DNA of 64,000 nucleotides, from NCBI GenBank assembly GCA_015488325.1, contig WFOA01000123.1, forward strand, positions 1,226 to 65,225. Direction: 5' to 3'. The first letter of the stretch is position 1. Each line of letters begins with the position of its first letter. Position numbers and translations under genes: made by a program. The notes beneath the pieces are model-generated. The model was not told where the DNA came from. It was given only the letters and a program-made list of their open reading frames with translations, and searched no databases. Positions 4,120 to 50,729 of the stretch are shown here, in pieces. The stretch comes from Acidimicrobiia bacterium (lineage in GTDB: Bacteria; Actinomycetota; Acidimicrobiia; Spongiisociales; ZC4RG35).

Positions 4120-4566
4120 TCAGCGTGGCGAGGCGACCCGTCGTGCCCGGCGAGGACGGATACGGCCACGGATGAGCCACAGTCCGACGGCGACGACGAT
4201 CGCCGGGGCGACCAGCAGCGGCAGCGTGCTCGGGCTGGGAGGCGGATCGAGGAGGATCCAGGTCCCGTACCGGGCAACGAAATAGTCGATGATCTCCTGG
4301 TCGGTTCGGCCTTCCGCCACCTGGGAGGCGATCAGCTCGCGCATCTCCCGGGCGGTCTCCGACGGTGAGTCGAGCACCGATTCGGACTGGCATACGGGGC
4401 ATCGGAGTTGGGCAGCGATGATCTTCGTGCGATCTTGGGGGCGGGGAGGGGCAGTCAGGAGCCCGACGGTGACGACCCCGACCGCCACCGCCAGCAGCAC
4501 CACCAGCGCCCGCCGGGTCGGACGGGGCGCGTCGGGGCCTGGAAGGTCAGGTCGGTGATCCGACAT
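4120..4566 (-). CDS. ccmH: cytochrome c-type biogenesis protein CcmH
   Basis: Signal/TM anchor, then LRCPVCQSESVLDSPSETAREMRELI (the CcmH LRCxxCQ motif) and a C-terminal TM segment. It overlaps the ccmF stop by 20 nt. Confidence 0.7.
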   Translation of the reverse strand: MSDHRPDLPGPDAPRPTRRALVVLLAVAVGVVTVGLLTAPPRPQDRTKIIAAQLRCPVCQSESVLDSPSETAREMRELIASQVAEGRTDQEIIDYFVARYGTWILLDPPPSPSTLPLLVAPAIVVAVGLWLIRGRIRPRRARRVASPR

Positions 4567-6529
4567 GGTCTTTCGCCGCTGTCAGGTCGTCCCGTTCCGG
4601 TTTGCGGAACACGAACGACGCCAGACCGCCGACCGACATCAGGATCCCCCCGATCCACACCAGGTACATCATCGGGTGGGTCTGGACGTCGAGGATCACC
4701 GAGTCGGAGTCCAGCCTGCGGATCGTCAGGTAGATGTCACGGGCGAGACTCGTGTTGACGGCGGGGGTGCCGATCGCCTGCTGGAAATTCGGGTACTGGT
4801 TGAGGCTGGGTTCCATCACCGCCACCAGTTCGCCGTCCCGGTAGACGGCGGCCCGAACCCCGGTGACGAGGCGGTTCGGCTCGGGCCGCTGGAACGATTC
4901 GAGATAGGTGATTTCGTAGCCGAGGGCCGAGCCGGTCTCGCCGGGACGCAGCGTCACCATCGCCTCGGAACTCAGGTTGCCGTACAGGGCGACCCCGACG
5001 GCGAGGATCGCCACCCCCAGATGGGCGACTTGACCTCCCCAGAAGCGGGGGTCGCGCACCACCACCCGCCTGACCGCCTCCCACCGTGTCCGACCCTGGG
5101 ACTCCATCACCGCCGACGCCTGACGCCAGAGGCGCTCCGCCACCGGGCCGACCACCAGGATGGCGAGTCCGACGATGGCGACGACGTGACCCACCCGCAC
5201 TCCGACGACGACGAGGAGGGCGCCGGCGAGGGCGGCCACCGCCAGGGACCCGCGGATCCGATCCCACACGACGACCGGACGTGCCTTCCGGTAGGGGGCG
5301 ATGCTCCCCACCCCCATCGCCGCCAACAGGATGTAGGAGAGGGGAACGGCGTACCGGTCGAAGAAGGGTCGGCCCACCGATATCTGTTCTCCGGAGATGG
5401 CTTCGACGATCATCGGGTAGATGGTGCCGAGGAGCACCACCACCGCCAGGGTCGACAACACCAGGTTGTTGAGGAGGAAGATCCCTTCGCGGCTCACCAT
5501 CGTGTCGAGACGCCGCGGCGACGACACGGCCGGAGCACGGAACCCGAGGAGGATCAGGCTGGACACCAGGATGACGGCGAAGAACCCGAGGAGCACCGGT
5601 CCGATCGCCGACTGCGAGAAGGCATGGACCGATCCGATCACCCCCGACCGGGTGAGGAACGTGCCGAAGATCGTCATGGCGAAGGTGAGGATGACGAGGA
5701 CGAAGTTCCAGCTCCGCAGCACTCCCCGCCGCCGCTCCACCACCGCCGAATGGATGAAGGCGGTGGCCGTTAGCCAGGGGATGAACGAAGCGTTCTCCAC
5801 GGGATCCCACGCCCAGAAGCCACCCCAGCCGAGGACTTCGTACGACCACCATCCGCCGATGACGATGCCGGCCCCGAGGAAACTCCAGGCGACGAGGGAC
5901 CACGAGTGGGTTCGTTCAAGCCAGTCGCTGCCCGACACCCCTTTCGCCAACGAGGCGACCGCGAAGGCGAAGGGGACGGTGAACCCGACGAACCCCAGGT
6001 AGAGGAGGGGCGGGTGGATCGCCATCATGATGTGGTTCTGGAGGAGCGGGTTGGGTCCGGGACCGTCGGGGGGCACCACGTCCAACGTCTGGAAGGGGTC
6101 GGCGACGGTCGCCATCACACCGAAGAAGAACAAGGCGACGACGCCGATCACGGCGATCGCTCCCGACCCGACATCGTCTCCGTCGCGGTGTTTCCTCACC
6201 ACCGTCCAGGCGTATCCGGCCAGCACCAGGCCCCACAGCACGATCGAACCTTCCAGCGCCGCCCAAGCGGTGGCGACGTTGAACGGGAAGGGCGTCGACC
6301 GGGAATGGTTCTCGGCCACGTAACGGATGGAGAAGTCGTTCCCCAACAGGGCGGCCTGCAGCGCCCCCATCGCGGCGAGGGCTCCCACCACCAGCGCCGC
6401 GGTGGCCGCCCCCAGGTAGGCGCGGCTCGCCCGGTTCGGGTTCCTGAACCCGATGACCCCACGCCGGATCATCTCGAGAGACGCCAGCACCCCCAACAGG
6501 ACGCCGGCCTTGCCGAACAGGGCGATCAT
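4547..6529 (-). CDS. ccmF: cytochrome c heme lyase subunit CcmF (NrfE family)
   Basis: 660-aa polytopic protein containing WGGFWAWDPVENASFIPWL, the tryptophan-rich WWD heme-handling signature of CcmF/NrfE. Confidence 0.85.
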   Translation of the reverse strand: MIALFGKAGVLLGVLASLEMIRRGVIGFRNPNRASRAYLGAATAALVVGALAAMGALQAALLGNDFSIRYVAENHSRSTPFPFNVATAWAALEGSIVLWGLVLAGYAWTVVRKHRDGDDVGSGAIAVIGVVALFFFGVMATVADPFQTLDVVPPDGPGPNPLLQNHIMMAIHPPLLYLGFVGFTVPFAFAVASLAKGVSGSDWLERTHSWSLVAWSFLGAGIVIGGWWSYEVLGWGGFWAWDPVENASFIPWLTATAFIHSAVVERRRGVLRSWNFVLVILTFAMTIFGTFLTRSGVIGSVHAFSQSAIGPVLLGFFAVILVSSLILLGFRAPAVSSPRRLDTMVSREGIFLLNNLVLSTLAVVVLLGTIYPMIVEAISGEQISVGRPFFDRYAVPLSYILLAAMGVGSIAPYRKARPVVVWDRIRGSLAVAALAGALLVVVGVRVGHVVAIVGLAILVVGPVAERLWRQASAVMESQGRTRWEAVRRVVVRDPRFWGGQVAHLGVAILAVGVALYGNLSSEAMVTLRPGETGSALGYEITYLESFQRPEPNRLVTGVRAAVYRDGELVAVMEPSLNQYPNFQQAIGTPAVNTSLARDIYLTIRRLDSDSVILDVQTHPMMYLVWIGGILMSVGGLASFVFRKPERDDLTAAKDHVGSPT

Positions 6530-37003: not shown

Positions 37004-37696
37004 ATGGGTGACATCGTCGTGATCTGGAACGACGAGACCAGTCCCCCCGGGAGGCTGGTCTCGGCGATGGAGAAGGCCGGGGTGTCCTGGCGGGACGTCC
37101 GCGCCGACCAGGGAGAGGACCTCCCGGACTTGGACGGCACCGCGGCCGTCGTCCTGTTGGGCGGATACATGGCGGCCTACGAAGAGGACCAGTACCCGTG
37201 GCTCGCCGCCGAGAAGGCCTTCGCCCGCCGGGCCGTGGAACGTGACGTCCCGGTGTTGGGGATCTGCCTGGGAGCTCAGCTCCTCGCCGACGCCCTCGGC
37301 GGGCAGGTGTTCAAGGCGGACAAACCCGAGGTGGGGGTGGTGCAGCTCTCGTTCACCCCGGAGGGACGTGCCGACCCGGTCGTCGGGCCGCTTCCGTCGA
37401 AGGTGTTCGCCTTCCATCAGGACACCTTCGACGTTCCGCCGGGAGCGCAGCTCTTGGCCCGCTCGGACCGGTTCCCGCACATCTTCCGCTTCGGCTCGGC
37501 GCTCGCCCTGCAGTTCCATCCGGAGACGCCGACCGATCTGGCGTTGTCGTGGGGGGAGGAAGCCGCCACCTCGATCCTCGAGCCGGCCGGGCTGACCGTC
37601 GACGAGTACGCGGCGATGGTCCGAGCGTCCGACCGGGATCTGGAGGTCGCCGCCGAAGGACTGTTCTCCCGGTGGCTGTCGTCCCTCAGTCGCTGA
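37004..37696 (+). CDS. class I glutamine amidotransferase-like protein
   Basis: ATG at 37004 gives MGDIVVIWNDETSPPGRL ... VPVLGICLGAQLLADALGG ... ALQFHPE, the Cys-His triad. Confidence 0.7.
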   Translation: MGDIVVIWNDETSPPGRLVSAMEKAGVSWRDVRADQGEDLPDLDGTAAVVLLGGYMAAYEEDQYPWLAAEKAFARRAVERDVPVLGICLGAQLLADALGGQVFKADKPEVGVVQLSFTPEGRADPVVGPLPSKVFAFHQDTFDVPPGAQLLARSDRFPHIFRFGSALALQFHPETPTDLALSWGEEAATSILEPAGLTVDEYAAMVRASDRDLEVAAEGLFSRWLSSLSR

Positions 37697-38300
37697 ACCG
37701 GAAACTGGCGAAGATCCTCTGCACGAGCTTGGACAGCAGCCCCAGGCGGTCGGCGGTGGTGACGAACGTCACCTCGTAGGCGGTCCCGTCCCGGAGGAAC
37801 AGCATCCGCGAGATCCCCACCGGCACGCCGTCCTGGGTCGCGGTCAACGTGATCCCGCGACCCGGCACGCCGTCGATGGTGACGGTGGCCTCCTCGAGGA
37901 TCTCGGCGTCCGGCAACACGCTCCGGATCCGCTGCACCTCGGCGTCGTAGTAGGCGACCGGCAGCAGGTTCCCGACTTCACCCACCACGACGTTGAAGTT
38001 GTCGCTGAATCCCGGCCCCACCGTCGGCCCGGTGAAGGTGACGATCCCGGCTGCTTCGTCCTCTTCGACGGTCCAGTCGGCCGGATAGTCGATCGAGAAC
38101 CCCAGCGTGGACGTGTAGGTGACGAGGGCCGATTCGCTGAAACCGAGAGTGGTCGTCGGTTGTGGGTCCTCGGTCTCGGCAGGAGCCGAGGTGCCGCCGC
38201 AGGCGGCGGCGACGGTGGCGAAGACGACGAGGGAGACGAAGGCACGCACCGACCGGAGGGTACCCTCCTGCCGTCGATGCGGGAACCCGGCTACCGTCAT
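37686..38300 (-). CDS. lipoprotein, function unknown
   Basis: Lipobox VAAACGG. 204 aa. Confidence 0.5.
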   Translation of the reverse strand: MTVAGFPHRRQEGTLRSVRAFVSLVVFATVAAACGGTSAPAETEDPQPTTTLGFSESALVTYTSTLGFSIDYPADWTVEEDEAAGIVTFTGPTVGPGFSDNFNVVVGEVGNLLPVAYYDAEVQRIRSVLPDAEILEEATVTIDGVPGRGITLTATQDGVPVGISRMLFLRDGTAYEVTFVTTADRLGLLSKLVQRIFASFRFSD

Positions 38301-41295: not shown

Positions 41296-41964
41296 TCAGG
41301 GAACCCCCGGCGGCGGCACCACCCGCACCACCTCTTCCCGTGCCCGCAACTCGTCGACGATCTGCGCCACGTCCTCCGGCCCCGCCCCGGCGATCTCCAC
41401 CACCAGTTTCCGCAGCCCGTCGGATTCCGTCATCGACATCGACTCGACCCGGGCACCGACGGCGTTGAGCGACTCGAACAGCGGCGTCAGGGTCCCGTGA
41501 CCGGCGCGGTAGTCGATCTCCAGCGGCAGGAGGGCGCTGCGACGCATGTACTTCCGGATCGGGGCGAAACCCACCATCACCGTCAACGCCAGGACCAGGG
41601 CGAGGGGGGCGAGGACGTAGAGGCCGAACCCGGCAGCCAGCCCCAGGGCGGCGGCGAGCCACAGCGTCGCCGCCGTCGTGATGCCGGTCACCGTGAATCC
41701 GGTCCGCAGCATCCCCCCGGCTCCGATGAACCCGATGCCGGTCACCACCTGGGCGGCGATCCGGGTGCGGTCGACCCCGACCTCGTCGAAGGCGTACGCA
41801 CCGGCGATCGTGAACAACGCGGCACCGATCGACACCATCGTGTGGGTGCGAAGCCCGGCGGTCTTCATGTGGATCTCCCGCTCGGCGCCCAGCACCGCCC
41901 CGAGGAGGGCGGCGAGCGCCACCCGAGCGGCCAACTCCAACTGGAAGGTGTCCATGCCGTCCAC
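41296..41964 (-). CDS. MgtC/SapB-family membrane protein
   Basis: 222 aa with the LGAEREIHMKTAGLRTHTMVSIGAALF N-terminal MgtC signature and a C-terminal ACT-like tail. Confidence 0.75.
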   Translation of the reverse strand: MDGMDTFQLELAARVALAALLGAVLGAEREIHMKTAGLRTHTMVSIGAALFTIAGAYAFDEVGVDRTRIAAQVVTGIGFIGAGGMLRTGFTVTGITTAATLWLAAALGLAAGFGLYVLAPLALVLALTVMVGFAPIRKYMRRSALLPLEIDYRAGHGTLTPLFESLNAVGARVESMSMTESDGLRKLVVEIAGAGPEDVAQIVDELRAREEVVRVVPPPGVP

Positions 41965-42044
41965 ACTAGGAGCATCCGGCCGACACGGATGGACGGCCGC
42001 CTGGGGTTGGCAGACTGGGGGTGTGTCTACCGCGGAGGATCGCC

Positions 42045-43421
42045 GTGCCCTACCGGACCATCATCGAACCGTTCCGGATCCACACCGTCGAACCGATCGA
42101 CTTCCCTGACGAGGACCGGCGTCGGGCGGCGCTCGAACGGGTCGGCTACAACGTGTTCGGCCTGCACGCCGACGAGGTGATCATCGACCTGCTCACCGAC
42201 TCGGGCACCGGGGCGATGTCGACCCGCCAGTGGGCGGGGATCATGCAGGGTGACGAGTCCTACGCCGGGAGCCGCTCCTTCTACCGCTTCCGGGACACCG
42301 TGGCCGAGATCACCGGCCTCACCGAGGTGATCCCCACCCATCAGGGGCGGGCTGCAGAACGGATCCTCTTCGCGGTGACGACGAACGCCGGCGACGTCGT
42401 CCCCAACAACACCCACTTCGACACCACCCGCGCCAACGTCGAGTACCAGGGGGCCGAAGCTCGGGACCTGGTGATCCCCGCCGGCCTCGACCCCGCCGCC
42501 GAGCATCCCTTCAAAGGCAACATGGACGTCGACGCCCTCGAAGCCACCATCGAGGAGGTCGGGCGCGACCGGGTGCCGCTGGTGATGGTGACGGTCACGA
42601 ACAACTCCGGGGGAGGCCAGCCCGTGTCGATGGCCAACCTCCGGGCCGTCCGGGAGGTCTGCGACCGTCACGGGATCCCCCTGTTCCTCGACGCCTGCCG
42701 GTTCGCCGAGAACGCCTGGTTCATCAAGCTCAGGGAGCCGGGCTACGCCGACAAGACCCCCATCGAGATCGCCCGGGAGATGTTCTCCCTGGTGGACGGA
42801 TGCACCATGTCGGCGAAGAAGGACGGGATGTCCAACATCGGCGGGTTCTTGGCGATGAACGATCCCACCCTGGCCCAGGAATGCCGGAACCTCCTCATCC
42901 TCACCGAAGGCTTCCCCACCTACGGGGGGCTGGCGGGCTACGACCTCGAAGCGGTGGCTCAGGGCTTGTGGGAGGCCCTGGAAGAGGAGTACCTGCGCTA
43001 CCGGATCCGCTCGACCGAGTACCTGGCGGAGAAGGTCGCCGCCGCCGGTGTCCCCATCGTCAAACCGCCGGGGGGCCACGCCGTGTACCTCGACGCCAAG
43101 GCGCTGCTCCCGCACATCCCCCCCTCCCAGTATCCGGCCCAGGCGCTCGCCTGCGCCCTCTACCTGGAAGGGGGGGTGCGCGGGGTGGAGATCGGCAGCG
43201 TCATGTTCGGCAAACCGCAGCCCGACGGTACCGAGATCCCGGCGCCGATGGAGCTGGTACGTCTCGCCGTGCCACGGCGGACCTACACCCAGAGCCACAT
43301 CGACTACGTGGGGGAGGTGATGATCGCCGTCGCCGAGAAGGCGGGAGACCTCCGGGGTCTACGGATGGTGAGTCAGCCCCCATGGCTTCGCCACTTCACC
43401 GCGACCTTCGAGCCTCTCTGA
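42045..43421 (+). CDS. tnaA: tryptophanase / tyrosine phenol-lyase (beta-eliminating lyase)
   Basis: GTG at 42045 lies 5 nt after GGAGGA. Reads VPYRTIIEPFRIHTVEPI ... SGTGAMSTRQW ... CTMSAKKDGMSNIGGFL (the PLP lysine). Confidence 0.8.
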   Translation: MPYRTIIEPFRIHTVEPIDFPDEDRRRAALERVGYNVFGLHADEVIIDLLTDSGTGAMSTRQWAGIMQGDESYAGSRSFYRFRDTVAEITGLTEVIPTHQGRAAERILFAVTTNAGDVVPNNTHFDTTRANVEYQGAEARDLVIPAGLDPAAEHPFKGNMDVDALEATIEEVGRDRVPLVMVTVTNNSGGGQPVSMANLRAVREVCDRHGIPLFLDACRFAENAWFIKLREPGYADKTPIEIAREMFSLVDGCTMSAKKDGMSNIGGFLAMNDPTLAQECRNLLILTEGFPTYGGLAGYDLEAVAQGLWEALEEEYLRYRIRSTEYLAEKVAAAGVPIVKPPGGHAVYLDAKALLPHIPPSQYPAQALACALYLEGGVRGVEIGSVMFGKPQPDGTEIPAPMELVRLAVPRRTYTQSHIDYVGEVMIAVAEKAGDLRGLRMVSQPPWLRHFTATFEPL

Positions 43422-43426
43422 TGGGG

Positions 43427-44077
43427 TCAGGCGTTCGGCGTCTGGGACTCACCCACGTTTGCGAACGTCACTTCGACGACCCACGAGTTCCCCGGGTCGG
43501 CGAGCTGGTATCCGGTGATCACGTCTTCGTAGAAGATCGTGATCTGGGCGTCGACCGGCTCGGTGTCACCTTGGCCGAAGTCGGGCACCGCCGCCGCCGG
43601 GAGGACGCCCCGCACCATGCCGGGCCCTTCCTCGGTCACCTGGACCATACCCAACAGGCCGAGGGACGGGCCGGTCGGTGCCTCCGCCAGGGGGATCTCG
43701 GTGGCCCCGTCGGGGCCGACGACCGTCGCCACGCCGTCCAACACGAGCGTCTTCACCGTCTGGTCGCCGGCGGTCACGAGGAGTTCGCGGTCGGCGCCGT
43801 CCACCCAGCCGCTCAACTCGACCTTCACTTCACCCGAGGCGGGGAACAGACTGACCGTCGCCTCGAAGGCGTAGGCGGAAGCCGCCTGGGTCGCGGCGAG
43901 GGCCTCACCGAACGGACTCTCCGCCGAGAGGGTCGGGTTCGGGGCCATCGTGGACGACGGGGCGACCGGTTCCGGTGCCGACGTCGCCGGCGAGACGGTG
44001 CCGACCGTGTCGGTGGACGGGCCGCCACAGGCCGCGGCGACGAGGGCCACGAGGAGGAGCGGAGCGAAGCGCCTCAT
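43427..44077 (-). CDS. lipoprotein, function unknown
   Basis: Lipobox LVAAACGG. 216 aa. Last gene of the sigma / anti-sigma cluster. Confidence 0.5.
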   Translation of the reverse strand: MRRFAPLLLVALVAAACGGPSTDTVGTVSPATSAPEPVAPSSTMAPNPTLSAESPFGEALAATQAASAYAFEATVSLFPASGEVKVELSGWVDGADRELLVTAGDQTVKTLVLDGVATVVGPDGATEIPLAEAPTGPSLGLLGMVQVTEEGPGMVRGVLPAAAVPDFGQGDTEPVDAQITIFYEDVITGYQLADPGNSWVVEVTFANVGESQTPNA

Positions 44078-44080
44078 CGG

Positions 44081-44884
44081 TCAAGACCCGTCGTCGCCGT
44101 CGGAGTCGCCGTCGTCCGACCCGTCATCCGAGTCGTCCTTCTTCTTCTCGTCCTTCTTGCCGTTGCTGTCATCGTCGTCCTCGCTGCTGTCGTCGTCGTG
44201 GTCGTTGCTGTCGTCACGGTCGTCGTTCTGGTCGTCGTCGGTGCCGTCGTCGTCACGGTCGTCGTCGTCACGACCGTCCCGGTCGTCGTCGGAATCCTCC
44301 TCCGATGCCGGCATCGACGTCGTCGTGGAAGGCTCCGCCACCTCCGACCCGTCCTCTTCTTCGACGACGGCGGCGGTCGCCGGCGGCGTGTCGTCGTCAT
44401 CGTCGTCGTCGTCCACGTAGGCGGCACCGGCGATCTCGTCGATTCGGGGGATCAGGTCGTCGGCCCTGGTTTCGGCGACCGCCGCCCGCGCCGCTTCGAT
44501 CGCCTCCTCGATGACGTCGCCTTCCACACCCTCAGCGGCCAACCGTTCGAGCTCGGCGACACGATGCTCCGCCTGGATCCGCGGATAGAACGGTTCGGCC
44601 ACCACCTCCACCGCCCGTTTCACCGGGTAGAGCACCTCACCCGGGAGGGCGTCTTGGCTCGCCACCGCGGCCACCGGCATCGCGGTGATCCCGGTGGTCA
44701 GCCAGGCGAGGGCGGCCCGGTGACGGACGAACCAGCTCACACCCCGGGCTGCTCCGACCGGTGGGGCGTTCAGTTCACGCCGGATGGCGGCGAGATGGCG
44801 GTCCCGAAGCGACTCCGGGACGCTCACCTCGGCCCTCACGCCGTCGAACAGCTTGTCCACGTCACCCTTCACGGGCGCCTCCAA
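44081..44884 (-). CDS. putative single-pass anti-sigma factor with an extreme poly-Asp/Glu C-terminal tail
   Basis: The 100-aa N-terminal cytoplasmic part (LRDRHLAAIRRELNA) precedes one TM helix (ALAWLTTGITAMPVAAVA). The roughly 120-aa C-terminus is almost entirely D/E/S (DDDDDDDDTPP ... DDSDDGSDDGDSDGDDGS). It overlaps the stop of the ECF sigma gene, so the start may be an internal GTG. Confidence 0.5.
   Translation of the reverse strand: MEAPVKGDVDKLFDGVRAEVSVPESLRDRHLAAIRRELNAPPVGAARGVSWFVRHRAALAWLTTGITAMPVAAVASQDALPGEVLYPVKRAVEVVAEPFYPRIQAEHRVAELERLAAEGVEGDVIEEAIEAARAAVAETRADDLIPRIDEIAGAAYVDDDDDDDDTPPATAAVVEEEDGSEVAEPSTTTSMPASEEDSDDDRDGRDDDDRDDDGTDDDQNDDRDDSNDHDDDSSEDDDDSNGKKDEKKKDDSDDGSDDGDSDGDDGS
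44090..44420 (-). repeat. (GAC/GAT/GAG)n-rich low-complexity coding tract (poly-acidic tail of the anti-sigma-like protein)
   Basis: The plus strand is dominated by gtcgtc/gtcatc/gtcgcc triplets, which encode about 120 aa of D/E/S. Confidence 0.6.
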
Positions 44885-45503
44885 GATCGATTACGTCCGC
44901 CTCCACAGATACGGACGCCGGCGAGCTCGCGGATTCGACGGCCCCGTCGAGGAGCCGGCGAAGGGTCGCCTCCGCCCGGGAACCGGCGGCATACACGGCG
45001 GCCCGGTTCGAGCCGAGGATCTCGGCGATCTCCGCCCCGTCGAAGCCATGCACGTGGCGAAGGAGGACGATCGCCCGCTGGCGGGGACTGAGAGCAGCCA
45101 AGGCGGATTCCAGCTGGGGGCTCATGCCGTCGTCGAAGGCCTCGGCGAACGGGCGGTCCGGCATCCGCTCGTGGGGCTCTTCAGGGTGTCGACGGCGTCG
45201 CCGAACCTCGTCGAGGACACCGAAACGCACCGCCCGGTACAGCCAGCTCCGGAGACTCCTGCCGTCCCCCTCGAACCGGTGGGAGGCTCGGGCCAGCTCC
45301 AAGAACGCCTGCTGGACGGCGTCTTCGGCCGCCCCCCGGTCCCGCAGCATCCGCCCGGCGAAGGCGAGGAGCGGACCTGCCATGGCGTCGTAGAGATCCG
45401 CGAACGCCTGGTCGTCGCGTTCGCGTATGCCGGAAACGAGGTGGTCGAGGGGGTCAGGCACGGAGATCACACGGCGAAGGGACGGCCACCGGGGCCGTCC
45501 CAT
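44862..45503 (-). CDS. ECF-type RNA polymerase sigma factor (sigma-70 family)
   Basis: Region 2 (DDQAFADLYDAMAGPLLAFAGRMLRDRGAAEDAVQQAFLELAR) and region 4 (LSPRQRAIVLLRHVHGFDGAEIAEILGSNRAAVYAAGSRAEATLRRLL). Confidence 0.75.
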   Translation of the reverse strand: MGRPRWPSLRRVISVPDPLDHLVSGIRERDDQAFADLYDAMAGPLLAFAGRMLRDRGAAEDAVQQAFLELARASHRFEGDGRSLRSWLYRAVRFGVLDEVRRRRRHPEEPHERMPDRPFAEAFDDGMSPQLESALAALSPRQRAIVLLRHVHGFDGAEIAEILGSNRAAVYAAGSRAEATLRRLLDGAVESASSPASVSVEADVIDLGGAREG

Positions 45504-45527
45504 CGCCGGGGTCGAGGGGAACTTGGA

Positions 45528-46262
45528 TCAGTCGTCGCTGTCGCGAGACCCTTCGTCGTCGTCATCGTCGCCGCCACGCTTCGACTTCGACGAGGCCTTG
45601 TCGTCGTCATCGTCGTCGTCACGGTCCTCGTCGTCACGGTCCTCATCGTCGTGGTCGGCGGCGTCGTCGTCGTCGGCTTCGTCATCGACCTCGTCATCGG
45701 CTTCTTCGGCCTCGACCTTGAAGGTCAAGGTGCCGTCTTCGAGTTCAAGCTTGACCTCGACGGCCCCGTCCTCGGAGACCAGCTTGACCTTGGTCTCGTC
45801 GCCGTCCGAATCCACCTCGAAGGTCCACCCGTCGGGCACGGAGATCACGTCGAACGTGCCGTCGTCGTTCACGTTGATCGTCACGACGCCCACGTCGGGG
45901 ATGCTCACCGAATGCTCACCGGGGGCGAGGCCGTCGACCTTGACCTTCAGCTCGCCTTCTTCGACCTCGATCTTCAGGGCGGCCAGCACACCGTTCGGGT
46001 CGGAGAGCCTGAACTCGGCCTCGTCGTCGTCGTTGTCGTGGTCGGGGGTGACCGTGTATCCGTCGGGGACGGTCACCAGCTCCACACCACCCGTGTCGGC
46101 GACGGCGACGCTGATCGTGCCGACACCGGGGATCGTGATGTCGTACTGGCCGGGGGCGAGGGCTTCGTCGGCCAGCGCGAAGGCGCCGAAGGCGAGGGCG
46201 GCGAGTGCGCCCGCCACACCGGCGACCAGGATTCTCATCTTCACGGACATCGTCATGGGCAA
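45528..46262 (-). CDS. secreted protein with two tandem ~70-aa domains and a poly-acidic C-terminal tail
   Basis: Signal peptide MRILVAGVAGALAALAFGAFALA. Two repeats (PGQYDITIPGVGTISVAVADTGGVELVTVPDGYTVTPDHD and PGEHSVSIPDVGVVTINVNDDGTFDVISVPDGWTFEVDSD). The C-terminus reads DDEVDDEADDDDAADHDDEDRDDEDRDDDDDDD. Confidence 0.55.
   Translation of the reverse strand: MPMTMSVKMRILVAGVAGALAALAFGAFALADEALAPGQYDITIPGVGTISVAVADTGGVELVTVPDGYTVTPDHDNDDDEAEFRLSDPNGVLAALKIEVEEGELKVKVDGLAPGEHSVSIPDVGVVTINVNDDGTFDVISVPDGWTFEVDSDGDETKVKLVSEDGAVEVKLELEDGTLTFKVEAEEADDEVDDEADDDDAADHDDEDRDDEDRDDDDDDDKASSKSKRGGDDDDDEGSRDSDD
45531..45720 (-). repeat. second poly-acidic low-complexity coding tract (tail of the secreted tandem-domain protein)
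   Basis: gtcgtcgtc-rich plus strand encoding DDEVDDEADDDDAADHDDEDRDDEDRDDDDDDD. It resembles the tract 1.3 kb downstream. Confidence 0.6.
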
Positions 46263-46372
46263 CCTCTCGGGTCGGGTTCTCCCTCACAGACGCCGCACAC
46301 CCACCAGATTCGACGGCCTCCCCCAATCTTTCTCCGGTGGCCGGCCACGGGGCCTACGCTGCGGTATGGGAG

Positions 46373-46904: not shown

Positions 46905-47369
46905 TCACCCTCCCCTGACGGGAACGGCAGTCACGACCACCCCTCCGCCACGGACGGCTCCGTGGACCCGCAAGGTGGGGGCATCCTCGGGGAGTTCCTC
47001 GGGATCGGCCACGTCGATCTGGGTTTGCCCCCAACGGAGATCGACATCGGTCTCGACCTTCCATGCCGGGTCGACTACGAGCCGGATCCCGCCGGCGACC
47101 ACCGTCAGTTCCACGGTGGCCCCTTCGGGAGACAGGGTCGCCGGTCGAAGGTCGACGTCGGCTCCTCCGGCGACGACCCGAACCCGACCTCCTCGCAGGC
47201 CGACGGCCCGGCTGGTGAAGACCCGGCCCCCCATCACCGCCAACAGGTCGAAGTCGTCGGCCTCGGGGGTCACTCGTTCACCCAGCAACCGAACCACCGT
47301 CCCCGACAACGCCCGGACGGCACCTCCGAGGACGATCAGCCACACGAAACGACGGAACCAGCGACCCAC
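46905..47369 (-). CDS. small membrane-anchored hypothetical protein (possibly toastrack/DUF4097-like)
   Basis: N-terminal TM helix (FVWLIVLGGAV), then repetitive GGRV...GG...VDL beta-strand-like segments. Directly downstream of the GAF histidine kinase. Confidence 0.4.
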   Translation of the reverse strand: MGRWFRRFVWLIVLGGAVRALSGTVVRLLGERVTPEADDFDLLAVMGGRVFTSRAVGLRGGRVRVVAGGADVDLRPATLSPEGATVELTVVAGGIRLVVDPAWKVETDVDLRWGQTQIDVADPEELPEDAPTLRVHGAVRGGGVVVTAVPVRGG

Positions 47370-47393: not shown

Positions 47394-49208
47394 TCACGAC
47401 GGCAGGGTGAGACGGAACACGCTCCACGAACCGTCACGGAGGTAGACGAGGTCGCCGTCCATGAGGCGTGCGAGCTGTCTGCTCACGGTGAGCCCGAGAC
47501 CCACACTCGCCGGCTGGCCCATGATGTCGTGGGCCGTCCGGTAGGGCTCGAAGATGCGTTCGCGAAGCTCGGGAGGGATCCCCTCGCCGTCGTCGCGGAC
47601 CTCGATGATCGTCACGCCGTCGCCGGGACGCACCCGCACCTCGACCCGGGGCCCGCCGTACCGGCGGGCGTTGGTCGACAGGTTGCGGAGGATCTGGCGG
47701 AGACGGCGCGGGTCGGCGGTCACCGTCGCCGGATCGCCCGCCACCGTCACCTCGCCATCGGCGAAGACCGCGGCGAGGGCCCGTTCCAACTCGGGGCGGA
47801 TCTCGACCCGGGTGGGTGCCACGTTCACCTGGCCGATATCGGCCCGGGCGACCACGAGGAGGTCTTCGACGATGTGGGCGACCTCGGTCGCCTGGTCGGC
47901 GATGAGCCCGACGAACTCCTCCAGTTCGTCACGGGAGAAACGCCCGAGGTCGGACCGCAGCTCCTGGGCGAGGCCGACCACCGCCGTCAACGGCGTCCGC
48001 AGTTCGTGGGAGACGGCCGCCACGAATTCGTCTTTCGAACGGACCAGCTTCTCCAACGTCTCCTTGGCTCGCATCCGATCCCAAAACACCCCGACCATGC
48101 GGGCCGCCGTCGCCAACAACAGCAGATCCTGGCGGTCCCAGGTGCGGGCTCGGGACAGGTCGGAGAACCCGATGATCCCCGCCAGGTCCCCGCCGATGAA
48201 GATGGGGATCTTCACTTCGGAACGGATCCTGGTGGGAGCCTGTTCGTACCAGGCCCGTTCCTTCCCGTTCAGCTCGTCGATGGTGAAGGCGAACGCTCGG
48301 CCCTGCGCCACCTGTCGGTAGGCGGTGGGCAGACGCGACCAGGGGACTCTCCGCCAGTACTCCCAGTCGGCGACCGTCGCCACCAGACCCGGCGCGGCGA
48401 CGGTCACGTGGCTGCAGATGACGGGTCCCAGCTCAGGGTCGTCTTCGCAGGTGTTCACGAACGCGAAGGAGGCGCCGGTGGCCCGCCGGAGGGCTTCGAG
48501 GGCCTGGCGGAGCGAGTCTTCGCCGTGGCCCAGCAGCAGCATGCGCCCGGCTTCGGCCAAGGCGTGTTCCATCTCGATGCGACGGGCCATCGCCGCCATG
48601 CTGGTCGTACGGGCCTCGTCGAGCTCCTGGCGTTCCCAGAAGGTGGCGATGAGGCTGGCGACGGTGCCGAGGAGGTCGAGGTCGTCGTCGGACCACCGGT
48701 GCCCCGCTTCGGTCCGGGCGAATCCCAACACGCCCATCCAGCGTCCCCGCCGCCCGACGGGGAGCTTCACCACCGAGCGGGTGACCGTCTCCACCACGTC
48801 CCGGTAGAAGCACCGTTCGGGGCCCTCCAGTTCGTCGACGGTGAAGGCCACCGCCCGCCCCTCCTCCAGCCCCTGCCTGCTGTGGGGAAGGCGGCTCCAC
48901 GGAACGAAGGTGAAGATGTCTGCGACCTGGCTCGAAAGCTCCAACCCTGGGCGGCACCGAGCCGCCACGTTGGTGAAACCGAAGCCCCGCTCAGGGTCGT
49001 GGACGTTGCGGTCGAGGAACACGAAATCCGTGTCCGTCGCCTCCAACAGGACATCGAGGACCCGTTCGATCCCGTCGTCGCCTTCGTCGGCGAGCAGCGT
49101 GGACGCAGCCACGGCGACGGCGCGTTCGATCCGGACCGGACGTTCGACCGCCGGCGGAGGCGTCTCGCCTCGCCCGTCGGCCGCGAGGGTTTCGGACACT
49201 GGTTTCAT
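47394..49208 (-). CDS. cytoplasmic sensor histidine kinase with two GAF domains
   Basis: 604 aa with two GAF-like regions, HisKA (FVAAVSHELRTPLTAV) and HATPase (RLRQILRNLSTNARRYG ... GLGLTVSRQLA). No TM segment, and no response regulator adjacent. Confidence 0.8.
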   Translation of the reverse strand: MKPVSETLAADGRGETPPPAVERPVRIERAVAVAASTLLADEGDDGIERVLDVLLEATDTDFVFLDRNVHDPERGFGFTNVAARCRPGLELSSQVADIFTFVPWSRLPHSRQGLEEGRAVAFTVDELEGPERCFYRDVVETVTRSVVKLPVGRRGRWMGVLGFARTEAGHRWSDDDLDLLGTVASLIATFWERQELDEARTTSMAAMARRIEMEHALAEAGRMLLLGHGEDSLRQALEALRRATGASFAFVNTCEDDPELGPVICSHVTVAAPGLVATVADWEYWRRVPWSRLPTAYRQVAQGRAFAFTIDELNGKERAWYEQAPTRIRSEVKIPIFIGGDLAGIIGFSDLSRARTWDRQDLLLLATAARMVGVFWDRMRAKETLEKLVRSKDEFVAAVSHELRTPLTAVVGLAQELRSDLGRFSRDELEEFVGLIADQATEVAHIVEDLLVVARADIGQVNVAPTRVEIRPELERALAAVFADGEVTVAGDPATVTADPRRLRQILRNLSTNARRYGGPRVEVRVRPGDGVTIIEVRDDGEGIPPELRERIFEPYRTAHDIMGQPASVGLGLTVSRQLARLMDGDLVYLRDGSWSVFRLTLPS

Positions 49209-49238: not shown

Positions 49239-50729
49239 CTATCGGCGCTCCGACCCGGAGGATTGAGGATCTCGACGACGCCCCGTCAACGCCACGGCGC
49301 CCACGGCGATCGCCCCCACCTGCAGCCAGTCGCCCCAACGCACATACAGGGTGGGTCCGCCCTCGGCGAGCCGGACCGTACCGACGATCAGCTCGGAGGT
49401 GGCGAGGCCGGTGCGTCGCCCCACCTGCCCGCCGTCGGTGATGAAGGTGGAGCGTCCGGTGACGGCGCTGTGCACGACGTCGACACCCAGCTCCGCCGCC
49501 CGCATGCGCGTGATCCCGATGAGTTGATCCGACGCCGCCGAATACGGGTAGCTGACCTGACTGGTGGCGACGACCAGCAGCTTGGCTCCGGCCCGGACGG
49601 TATCCCTCGGATAGCGGGCGAACGAGCTCTCGAACGAGATCACCGAACCGAACGGCCCGAACCCGACGTCGAAGACGAGGGGATGGGTGCCGCGGATCAT
49701 GTCGCGGGGCACCGCTGCGAGCTCCCGGACCCAGCCGAAGAGGGGCCGGGCCGGGACGTATTCCCCGAAGGGGACGGGATGGCGCTTGCGGTATTCACCG
49801 ACGATCCGACCGGACCGGTCGAACACGACGTTGGCGTTCACCCATTCGGTCTCGGACACGACCCGGTCACCGCCCACCAGGAACGCCGCGCCGATCCGCC
49901 GAGCCTCGGCAGCGATGGCCTCTCCGACCTCACGGTTGAGGACCGGGTCGGCGTTGATGCCCCCGGTCGAGCCTTCCGGCCACACCACCAGGTCGACCGA
50001 ACCTGGGGCGATCGTCCGGGTCAGCGCCAGATGCTGCCGATAGGTCCGAAACCGTTCGTTCTCGCAGTGCTCGCCGGGACAGGGGGTGCTGCCCTGGACG
50101 ATGGCGACCCGCACCTCCCGTCCCCGGTCGACGGGCCCGGCGACGGCGCCGAACGTCACCAGGGCCGCCACCACCGCCACCGTCGCCGACAGGAGCCACC
50201 GGAGACGCCGCTTCTGCCACCCATGTAGGACCAGGACGGCGGCGGCTGCCGCGGCGACCAGCACCACCGACCAGCCGCTGGTGCCGATCCACCGGGCCGC
50301 CGCCCGGGCCGGCGAATACTCACCCATCGGGTATCCGGCCAGCCCCCAGCCGAACCCACCGACCGGGAACCGGACACGGAGGAACTCCATCGCCGCCCAG
50401 CCACCGGTCGCCACGGCCCACCATCGGAGGCTCCGACCCGTACCGACTCGGCGAACCAGCGCGCCGTAGAGGGCAGGGTATGCCGCCTGGCTCAACACCA
50501 GGGGGATGAGGGCGATGACGCCCAGCTCGCCGATCCAGGGGAACAGCAGCCCGAAGAACACGACCCCGAAGACCGCACCCACCGCCGCCGCCCGTCGTAC
50601 CGTCGACACCTCCGTCAACGCCCACAGGAACACGGCGAGCGCAGGGACGACCAACCACCCGGCACCGTACGGCGGGTAGGCGGCGACGAGGAGAACGGCG
50701 GCGACAGCCGCCGCGAAGAATGCACGCAT
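49239..50729 (-). CDS. lnt: apolipoprotein N-acyltransferase
   Basis: 496 aa with N-terminal multi-TM and a C-terminal nitrilase-like domain (VRVAIVQGSTP ... VVWPEGS ... YRKRHPVPFGEYVP). Confidence 0.85.
   Translation of the reverse strand: MRAFFAAAVAAVLLVAAYPPYGAGWLVVPALAVFLWALTEVSTVRRAAAVGAVFGVVFFGLLFPWIGELGVIALIPLVLSQAAYPALYGALVRRVGTGRSLRWWAVATGGWAAMEFLRVRFPVGGFGWGLAGYPMGEYSPARAAARWIGTSGWSVVLVAAAAAAVLVLHGWQKRRLRWLLSATVAVVAALVTFGAVAGPVDRGREVRVAIVQGSTPCPGEHCENERFRTYRQHLALTRTIAPGSVDLVVWPEGSTGGINADPVLNREVGEAIAAEARRIGAAFLVGGDRVVSETEWVNANVVFDRSGRIVGEYRKRHPVPFGEYVPARPLFGWVRELAAVPRDMIRGTHPLVFDVGFGPFGSVISFESSFARYPRDTVRAGAKLLVVATSQVSYPYSAASDQLIGITRMRAAELGVDVVHSAVTGRSTFITDGGQVGRRTGLATSELIVGTVRLAEGGPTLYVRWGDWLQVGAIAVGAVALTGRRRDPQSSGSERR

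Follow-up and report, generated by a model that had tools for sequence, protein, structure and literature searches.

We propose that four tightly spaced genes on the minus strand of a 64,000-nucleotide (nt) stretch of DNA from an Acidimicrobiia bacterium (assembly GCA_015488325.1, contig WFOA01000123.1; the whole stretch is referred to as the window) constitute one autoregulated extracytoplasmic function (ECF) envelope-signalling operon of an Acidimicrobiia-like actinobacterium, in which a DUF5667-like membrane protein acts as the anti-sigma factor and long disordered tails serve as a sensing or spacing element. We hold this reading to be somewhat better than even, at a probability of roughly 0.55. 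The genes lie between positions 43427 and 46256 of this high-GC (~70%) DNA and encode, in order of transcription, a secreted protein, an ECF sigma factor, a single-pass membrane protein, and a lipoprotein. The most novel element appears to be the pair of matched and apparently co-evolving tails on the anti-sigma factor and the secreted protein, together with a domain fusion that links these two partners.

Operon, sigma factor, and promoter

A preliminary description of the window had placed four minus-strand genes in a row at this position, and all four open reading frames (ORFs) indeed exist. The intergenic gaps measure 24, -11, and 3 nt in order of transcription and no terminator-like or sigma-70 promoter-like site was found inside the cluster, so that the four genes look like one operon. 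All four genes and their neighbours are syntenic in a related locus (L001; GCA_054017735.1), and in the distant locus L091 the same four genes are still found together in the rearranged order secreted protein, lipoprotein, sigma factor, and anti-sigma factor.

The second gene (44862 to 45503, minus strand; 213 residues) encodes the ECF sigma factor that had been recognized earlier. Its product matches the Pfam families Sigma70_r2 (1e-15) and Sigma70_r4_2 (2e-13) and contains sigma-2 and sigma-4 domains only, with neither sigma-3 nor sigma-1, which places it in the ECF group (group 4) of sigma-70 factors. It also matches the NCBIfam superfamily model TIGR02937 (81.4 bits versus a cutoff of 42.9), the only NCBIfam model reached; no equivalog or subfamily model matched at its cutoff, the best models below cutoff being PRK05602 (96.5 versus 208 bits), SigE-fam_strep (93.9 versus 141.6), and SigM (75 versus 190). 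The protein is 37 to 55% identical to the sigma factors of related modules and has conserved motifs in common with them.

About 50 nt upstream of the first gene, the region 46307 to 46335 (minus strand) reads GGAGAAAGATTGGGGGAGGC-CGTCGAATC, which can also be written as GGAGAAAG-N-CGTCGAATC, that is, a GGAA-like -35 element followed after about 14 nt by CGTCGAATC. L001, L003, L011, L009, and L021 likewise show the core CGTC[GA][GA]ATC before the leading gene of the module, again with GGAA 14 nt upstream of it. The exact 9-mer CGTCGAATC is present in six copies in the window, where 1.8 are expected, and only the copy at 46307 to 46335 is both intergenic and upstream of a gene. From its sequence and its recurrence, this region looks like an autoregulated ECF-type promoter. 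The window contains no other intergenic copy of the core, and hence no further regulon member is visible there. A second exact copy, which is found also in L006 (409 to 435), lies at 44932 to 44940 (minus strand), where it falls within the 3' end of the coding sequence for sigma, some 60 nt ahead of the anti-sigma start. This copy is unlikely to be a second, internal promoter because it is not accompanied by a GGAA-like -35 element and encodes a V-E-S motif that is conserved at the C terminus of several related sigma factors; it probably reflects a coding constraint.

The membrane protein and its family

The third gene (44081 to 44872, minus strand; stop codon, 44081 to 44083) encodes a protein of 263 residues. 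Its most likely start is GTG 44872, which is preceded by GGAGG at a distance of 5 nt and agrees with the orthologs, all of which begin with MKGD. On these grounds we reject the TTG at 44884, 12 nt further upstream, from which the gene had been read before; the reported overlap with the sigma gene is nevertheless real and comprises 11 nt at the sigma stop. The protein has a predicted cytoplasmic N terminus of about 50 residues (residues 1 to 52; 44717 to 44872), a predicted transmembrane helix with the sequence AALAWLTTGITAMPVAAVA (residues 53 to 71; 44660 to 44716), a helical juxtamembrane domain with the motif LPGEVLYPVKR (44414 to 44659), and an acidic disordered tail (residues 154 to 263; 44084 to 44413). 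Taken alone, the transmembrane segment is weakly hydrophobic (Kyte-Doolittle, 1.58; family median, 2.15), and it is located at a position that is conserved throughout the family. Among 149 family members, the 12 residues that precede the hydrophobic segment contain on average 4.4 Lys or Arg residues, compared with 0.07 after it, a positive-inside bias that upholds the single-pass, N-in/C-out topology proposed previously.

In a word-indexed protein search, each of the three non-sigma proteins had only five to six close relatives, and the family came into view only through an exhaustive HMMER search. With residues 1 to 153 of the membrane protein as the query and a cutoff of E <= 1e-3, this search yielded 250 representative clusters. 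The members follow one plan, with an N terminus of about 50 residues, a hydrophobic segment at a fixed position, a helical region, and a hydrophilic low-complexity tail. A conserved RxRHLAAI-like motif in the cytoplasmic N terminus retains its His in at least 90% of the members, and the helical region begins with a near-invariant PG..LYP.K motif. Our protein scores 23.7 bits (E 6.6e-5) against DUF5667 (PF18915), below the Pfam gathering threshold of 27 bits. Matches to DUF5667 at E <= 0.01, all of them subthreshold, are seen for 38 of 62 family members, and they include the juxtamembrane helical region with LPG..LYP.K; no other family matches consistently. On this sequence evidence, the family is best described as a divergent branch or relative of DUF5667, for which a literature search returned nothing relevant and no described function.

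In at least 64 of 87 loci, the DUF5667-like gene is immediately preceded by an ECF sigma ORF on its own strand, and many of the loci without one in that position end at a contig end. Given this conserved coupling and the N-in topology, an anti-sigma role is the best inference, and the membrane protein is probably the anti-sigma factor of the adjoining ECF sigma factor. A branch of DUF5667 would thereby be given a probable role.

Orthologs of the three non-sigma proteins were found only in metagenomes and metagenome-assembled genomes (MAGs). A scan of genome contigs gave one true locus, L003, in an Acidimicrobiia MAG that is the closest named relative, and one false positive; a scan of viral contigs gave no match. 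The false positive, L004 (Nonomuraea sp.), would have been the sole match of the genome scan in a cultured organism, but it is an out-of-frame ORF over a large phage-tail-like gene in an unrelated region.

The secreted beta-repeat protein

The first gene (45528 to 46256, minus strand; stop codon, 45528 to 45530) encodes the secreted protein of 242 residues. It starts at ATG 46256 after a Shine-Dalgarno-like GAGAGG, and its ortholog P0006 begins at the same Met. A signal peptide that ends at ALA|DE (46170 to 46256) is followed by two repeats (residues ~35 to 108, 45933 to 46154; residues ~111 to 183, 45708 to 45926) and an acidic disordered tail (residues 186 to 242; 45531 to 45701). The two tandem domains of about 70 residues that had been perceived in this protein are real repeats of about 72 residues, and in the AlphaFold2 model they form two sets of seven beta strands, with a predicted local confidence (pLDDT) of 74 to 83 for the repeats, compared with about 50 for the tail. 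The protein does not match any Pfam family at threshold, nor did a Foldseek comparison of the model with the PDB give a credible match (best E, 0.03; TM-score, <0.25). The repeat thus represents a new secreted beta-repeat domain, without a match in Pfam or the PDB.

Proteins with a signal peptide, one to three copies of this domain, and a low-complexity tail are encoded just upstream of the sigma gene in distant loci, namely, L007/L008, L009/L010, L011, L091, and L094, and tail fragments of such an upstream gene are present at the contig ends of L005 and L092. In addition, the membrane proteins P0017, P0043, P0131, and P0152 carry a copy of the beta domain fused to their C terminus after a disordered linker. 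The fused domain of P0152 resembles the secreted repeats of its own locus, L009 (BLASTP E, 4e-7). Two subtypes can be distinguished on this basis. In subtype A (the window, L001 to L003, L011, and L091, and in part L005, L006, and L092), the secreted protein alone carries the beta domain, and acidic tails occur together with a LolA-like lipoprotein. In subtype B (L007 to L010, L094, and L095), the domain is fused to the anti-sigma tail as well, the tails are rich in P/S/T or DRP, and there is no lipoprotein. Of 723 ORFs compared with a hidden Markov model (HMM) built from the subtype B domains only, those for the secreted proteins of the window, L001, and L003 took the first three places (E, 3e-5 to 1e-4; next, 0.13), and hhalign (E, 1.4e-4) and hmmsearch gave further support. 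The secreted protein is therefore a true member of the module. Given the fusion of this beta domain with the anti-sigma tail in the sister subtype, the two proteins most likely cooperate outside the cell.

In L021 (429 to 953), L025 (943 to 1473), and L013 (3 to 734), loci of the wider family, the position ahead of sigma is taken by a gene for another kind of secreted protein, with (TQ)n repeats and Cys-rich segments and without the beta-repeat domain. The motif GAAAG-N-CGTCGAATC is retained upstream of the (TQ)n gene of L021. It seems that the slot for a secreted protein ahead of the sigma gene is conserved even when its occupant changes.

The disordered tails

Both tails in the window are strongly acidic. 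That of the membrane protein comprises 110 residues with 47 Asp, 9 Glu, and 13 Ser (63% D/E/S; net charge, -47), and that of the secreted protein comprises 57 residues with 30 Asp, 5 Glu, and 5 Ser (70% D/E/S; net charge, -28). Their earlier portrayal as nearly pure D/E/S tracts was correct as to their acidity and somewhat overstated as to their purity, as both contain a Lys-rich cluster and the tail of the membrane protein also has a T/P/A-rich stretch. They share a layout in which an acidic run is followed by the Lys cluster (KASSKSKRGG and NGKKDEKKKDD, respectively) and an acidic end. In a sliding window of 30 residues the acidic fraction peaks at 0.67 and 0.77 in these two genes, and it does not exceed 0.37 in the remainder of the 42 likely genes of the window, which rules out a generally acidic, halophile-type proteome as the cause.

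Every member of the membrane protein family has a tail (median, 86 residues; mean hydropathy, -1.4). Most of these tails are rich in T/S/P/G/D/R, with a median acidic fraction of 0.22; this fraction reaches at least 0.40 in 12 of 146 tails and at least 0.50 in 4. At 0.51, the protein studied here stands at the end of a continuum, and hence the tail is a hallmark of the family and poly-Asp a lineage-specific variant of it. The idea that the poly-Asp tail is a distinct sensing domain of a new kind of system did not survive this comparison, since a disordered tail is universal in the DUF5667-like family and the poly-Asp version marks its acidic extreme. Its composition is a lineage-specific tuning of the tails and not a separate domain; the result is polyanionic, conserved in length and charge, and matched between the two proteins.

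Conservation in relatives had been set beforehand as the test that could refute a function of the tails, and the position, length, and net charge of the tails turned out to be preserved. Among orthologs of the membrane protein the folded part is 72 to 82% identical and the tail 31 to 54%, with tail lengths of 105 to 113 residues and net charges of -31 to -47. For the orthologous secreted proteins, tails of 43 to 61 residues with net charges of -24 to -32 persist down to an identity of only 43% in the folded part. These sequences show the pattern expected of a functional disordered region, in which composition and length are constrained and the sequence is free to drift.

It could be argued that the acidic tracts are neutral low-complexity expansions, arising by slippage on GAC codons in an ordinary sigma/anti-sigma operon for which any disordered spacer suffices and poly-Asp as such serves no particular purpose. 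The wide range of tail composition in the family, from P/S/T-rich to acidic, and the faster divergence of the tails relative to the folded parts fit this explanation, as does the finding that RsgI of Bacillus subtilis works with heterologous and even scrambled disordered tails (PMC9732909). At the DNA level, moreover, the tails are degenerate period-3 GTC/GAC arrays. These arrays are only 62 to 63% matching, however, which makes them old and gives no sign of recent slippage, and the constancy of tail length and net charge in the face of sequence drift speaks against neutral expansion. Acidic tails are furthermore found on both proteins in at least five independent lineages and P/S/T or DRP tails on both in three others, the linker of the lipoprotein encoded in the same operon is P/S/T/A-rich and nonacidic, and no other protein of the window has a comparable tract. 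We therefore regard neutral expansion as unlikely. A recent event of duplication or gene conversion linking the two tails was rejected as well because their DNA similarity, 60 to 72%, is at the level of low-complexity sequence.

Another explanation for the acidity is that the poly-Asp tails are sensors or buffers of Ca2+, Mg2+, or cationic peptides, such that cations bridge the tails to each other or to anionic polymers of the membrane or wall and depletion of cations, or the arrival of peptides, leads to activation of sigma. The acidic patch of PhoQ and the poly-Asp tails of calsequestrin type offer a comparison. The net negative charge of the extracytoplasmic tails (-47 and -28), the matching of the tails between the two proteins, and their common acidic/Lys/acidic plan are consistent with such a role, and a MgtC-family gene, assigned by synteny with L001, is located two genes away (41296 to 41964, minus strand). 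MgtC has been linked to Mg2+ homeostasis in other bacteria, and its proximity is suggestive in relation to polyanionic tails, but there is no promoter core near this gene and its linkage to the operon is confined to close relatives. The tails contain no metal-binding motif or domain, and most family members have nonacidic tails in the same architecture, which means that cation sensing is not the core mechanism of the family. Divalent-cation binding by these particular tails is plausible, and cation sensing as the explanation of the system is improbable.

The tails of the two proteins also resemble each other from locus to locus. Acidic tails are paired with acidic tails in the window, L005, L011, L091, and L092, P/T with P/S/T tails in L007 and L009, and DRP repeats with DRP repeats in L094; the acidic pairs thus recur in independent lineages. 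Tail composition is closer within a locus than between loci (mean cosine, 0.84 versus 0.67; exact permutation P = 0.007), a statistic that is based on eight lineages, two of them with fragmentary tails, and that ignores phylogeny and the genome-wide composition of disordered regions. This co-variation is suggestive of tails that apparently evolved as a matched pair. Conceivably, they form a co-evolving functional pair, in which the sigma-induced secreted protein interacts extracellularly with the anti-sigma factor by tail-tail chemistry (cation-bridged pairing of polyanions or co-partitioning in the wall in the acidic subtype) or through contacts of the beta domains in the fused sister subtype. 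We consider this elaboration quite doubtful; if true, it would amount to a feedback-wired sensor built of disordered regions, a type that has not been described for any sigma/anti-sigma system.

Two minor features of the family tails were observed. The extreme C terminus is exactly RDG in 15 of 146 members and DG-like (...DRPRDG, ...RRDG, or ...GDG) in 33 of 146 (P0019 to P0163); the membrane protein of the window ends in ...GDDGS, without the exact RDG motif. Such conservation at the very end of a disordered tail that is otherwise unconserved might provide a tag for recognition, for instance by a PDZ-type protease. Runs of four to six Thr residues are very common and occur in most members, including P0002 to P0005 (in the window, STTTS at 44300 to 44330). 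In actinobacteria, Thr runs are typical sites of O-mannosylation, and the sequences suggest that the family tails may be glycosylated.

The lipoprotein

The last gene of the operon (43427 to 44077, minus strand; 216 residues) encodes, as had been stated, a lipoprotein, with the lipobox LVAAAC|GG. Its AlphaFold2 model consists of one helix followed by 11 strands (pLDDT, 56; predicted TM-score, 0.50). An N-terminal helix with an unclosed antiparallel beta half-barrel of about 11 strands is the hallmark of the LolA-like fold, and all 25 Foldseek matches in the PDB at E <= 1e-3 belong to the LolA superfamily (LprG, LolA, LppX, RseB, and EPDR1), among them LprG 3mh8 (1e-6) and RseB 2v43 (7e-4); MucB and LolB fall just past the 1e-3 cutoff. 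The model thus points, at low confidence, to a LolA/LprG/RseB-like fold. The protein is a single domain without a Pfam or NCBIfam match and does not belong to the MucB_RseB sequence family. Homologs are encoded in L001, L011, and L091, and in L006 the start of a lipoprotein follows the anti-sigma gene.

A second lipoprotein of 204 residues, with a ...VAAACGG lipobox, is encoded about 5 kb away (37686 to 38300, minus strand). It weakly matches the HMM of the operon lipoprotein (E, 3.6e-4) and may be a distant paralog. At L093, the locus of P0081, another lipoprotein, whose C-terminal sequence is cupredoxin-like (…DQLHVHGYDLHH), is encoded two genes downstream (4492 to 4824). P0081 itself has an acidic anti-sigma tail, and there is no upstream beta-repeat gene at this locus.

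Proposed mechanism

Taken together, our observations are compatible with the following scenario. The sigma factor would be held at the membrane by the conserved cytoplasmic N terminus of about 50 residues of the downstream single-pass protein, as conserved gene adjacency and topology suggest. On the other side of the membrane, the helical DUF5667-like domain would lead into the disordered tail of about 110 residues, which would extend into the cell wall. A wall or ionic perturbation felt via the tail and its partners might then lead to the anti-sigma factor being destroyed, by analogy with the regulated proteolysis of RsgI, RsdA, and RseA, and the freed sigma factor would induce the operon from the GGAA-N14-CGTCGAATC promoter. 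The secreted beta-repeat protein, with its own disordered tail, would be an accessory member of the module that acts with the anti-sigma factor outside the cell, and the LolA-fold lipoprotein may act in an RseB-like manner on the ectodomain of the anti-sigma factor.

Several points weigh against this reading. The homologs all come from metagenomes and MAGs and none of them is annotated, a cluster look-up having returned only "hypothetical protein." As noted above, the match to DUF5667 (23.7 versus 27 bits) is under the Pfam threshold, and the co-variation test has the limits given with it. No known anti-sigma domain was detected in the N terminus by Pfam or by PDB sequence searches, and the latter, for which the queries were the anti-sigma N-terminal half and the family profile, returned only noise. 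The cytoplasmic part is shorter than a class I anti-sigma domain, which comprises some 80 to 90 residues in four helices and in ZAS members also carries HxxxCxxC; it contains no Cys and matches neither zf-HC2 nor RskA, nor any anti-sigma factor in the PDB. The homology of the beta domains between the subtypes relies on modest scores (18 to 19 bits). The lipoprotein has no sequence-family match, and its model is of low confidence with TM-scores of 0.40 to 0.47 to the LolA-fold matches. Finally, the model names no protease, inducing signal, or regulon.

That the DUF5667-like protein is not an anti-sigma factor at all and is instead a co-transcribed envelope protein, a target or effector of a sigma factor that is regulated otherwise, would accord with the short cytoplasmic part devoid of a recognized anti-sigma domain and with the listing of DUF5667 in Pfam as a domain of unknown function, but it is very unlikely in view of the adjacency and translational coupling to the sigma gene across sigma factors that are only 37 to 55% identical, the conserved cytoplasmic RxRHLAAI motif, the N-in topology as in membrane anti-sigma factors, and the existence of short two-helix class II anti-sigma domains of the CnrY type.

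Relation to known systems

The reading that we favour, an ECF operon with a tail-bearing anti-sigma factor, has functional precedents, in that anti-sigma factors with an extracellular disordered sensing tail have already been described. In RsdA, which controls sigma-D (ECF40) in Mycobacteriales, a disordered periplasmic region of about 160 residues has been proposed to sense cell-envelope defects, and activation involves proteolysis at site 1 (MarP) and site 2 (Rip1) (PMC11175481). In the RsgI/sigma-I system of B. subtilis, the C-terminal extracellular disordered region is required for sensing cell-wall defects, and it is the composition of the tail that counts, not its sequence (PMC9732909).

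With RsdA, our system shares an actinobacterial ECF sigma factor and a single-pass anti-sigma factor with a long disordered extracytoplasmic region. However, no match to RsdA_SigD_bd was found (Pfam, E <= 1) and SigD is not among the top NCBIfam models for the sigma factor, and the helical DUF5667-like domain, the secreted beta-repeat partner, the LolA-like lipoprotein, and the polyanionic tail further set the two apart. Like RsgI, the membrane protein is a putative anti-sigma factor with a C-terminal disordered region outside the cell, but sigma-I is not an ECF sigma factor, the N-terminal domain and autoproteolytic SEAL domain of RsgI were both undetected here by Pfam, and RsgI has no matched secreted partner. 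The order of sigma factor, membrane anti-sigma factor, and, directly downstream, a LolA-fold protein is reminiscent of RseA-RseB (MucA-MucB) in the sigma-E system of Gram-negative bacteria, where RseB binds to the anti-sigma ectodomain and gates proteolysis of the anti-sigma factor. Both RseB and MucB indeed occur among the fold matches of the lipoprotein. Here, however, the lipoprotein is lipid-anchored and comes from a monoderm, LprG, LolA, and LppX are better fold matches than RseB, the model confidence is low, and, as there is no MucB_RseB sequence match, the likeness is one of function and position only. By analogy, the system may work like RsgI/RsdA, and through the lipoprotein perhaps like RseA-RseB, although it falls outside RsdA, RsgI, ZAS/class I, and RseB in terms of sequence membership. 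Literature searches on acidic-tailed anti-sigma factors and on ECF systems of Acidimicrobiia returned nothing relevant.

Signalling through extracellular disordered regions is a recent idea in bacteria, with tests in the case of RsgI and a proposal in that of RsdA. The family offers a natural experiment on the contribution of tail chemistry, with at least 250 sequence clusters of one architecture and tails that range from P/S/T-rich to about 50% Asp/Glu. Because the tail of the secreted partner tracks that of the anti-sigma factor, it can be tested whether two disordered tails work as a pair. Likewise amenable to testing are tail charge and length as determinants of signal specificity and the RseB-like role of a LolA-fold lipoprotein in a monoderm.

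Neighbouring genes

Besides the MgtC-family gene, the DNA that flanks the operon contains a gene for a tryptophanase-like beta-eliminating lyase (42021 to 43421, plus strand), which was likewise assigned by synteny with L001. Upstream of the operon, past a divergently transcribed nitroreductase-like gene, lie genes on the minus strand for a protein of 154 residues without a Pfam match (46905 to 47369), a GAF-GAF-HisKA-HATPase histidine kinase (47394 to 49208), and an Lnt-like apolipoprotein N-acyltransferase (49239 to 50729), all of which are syntenic in L001 and L003.

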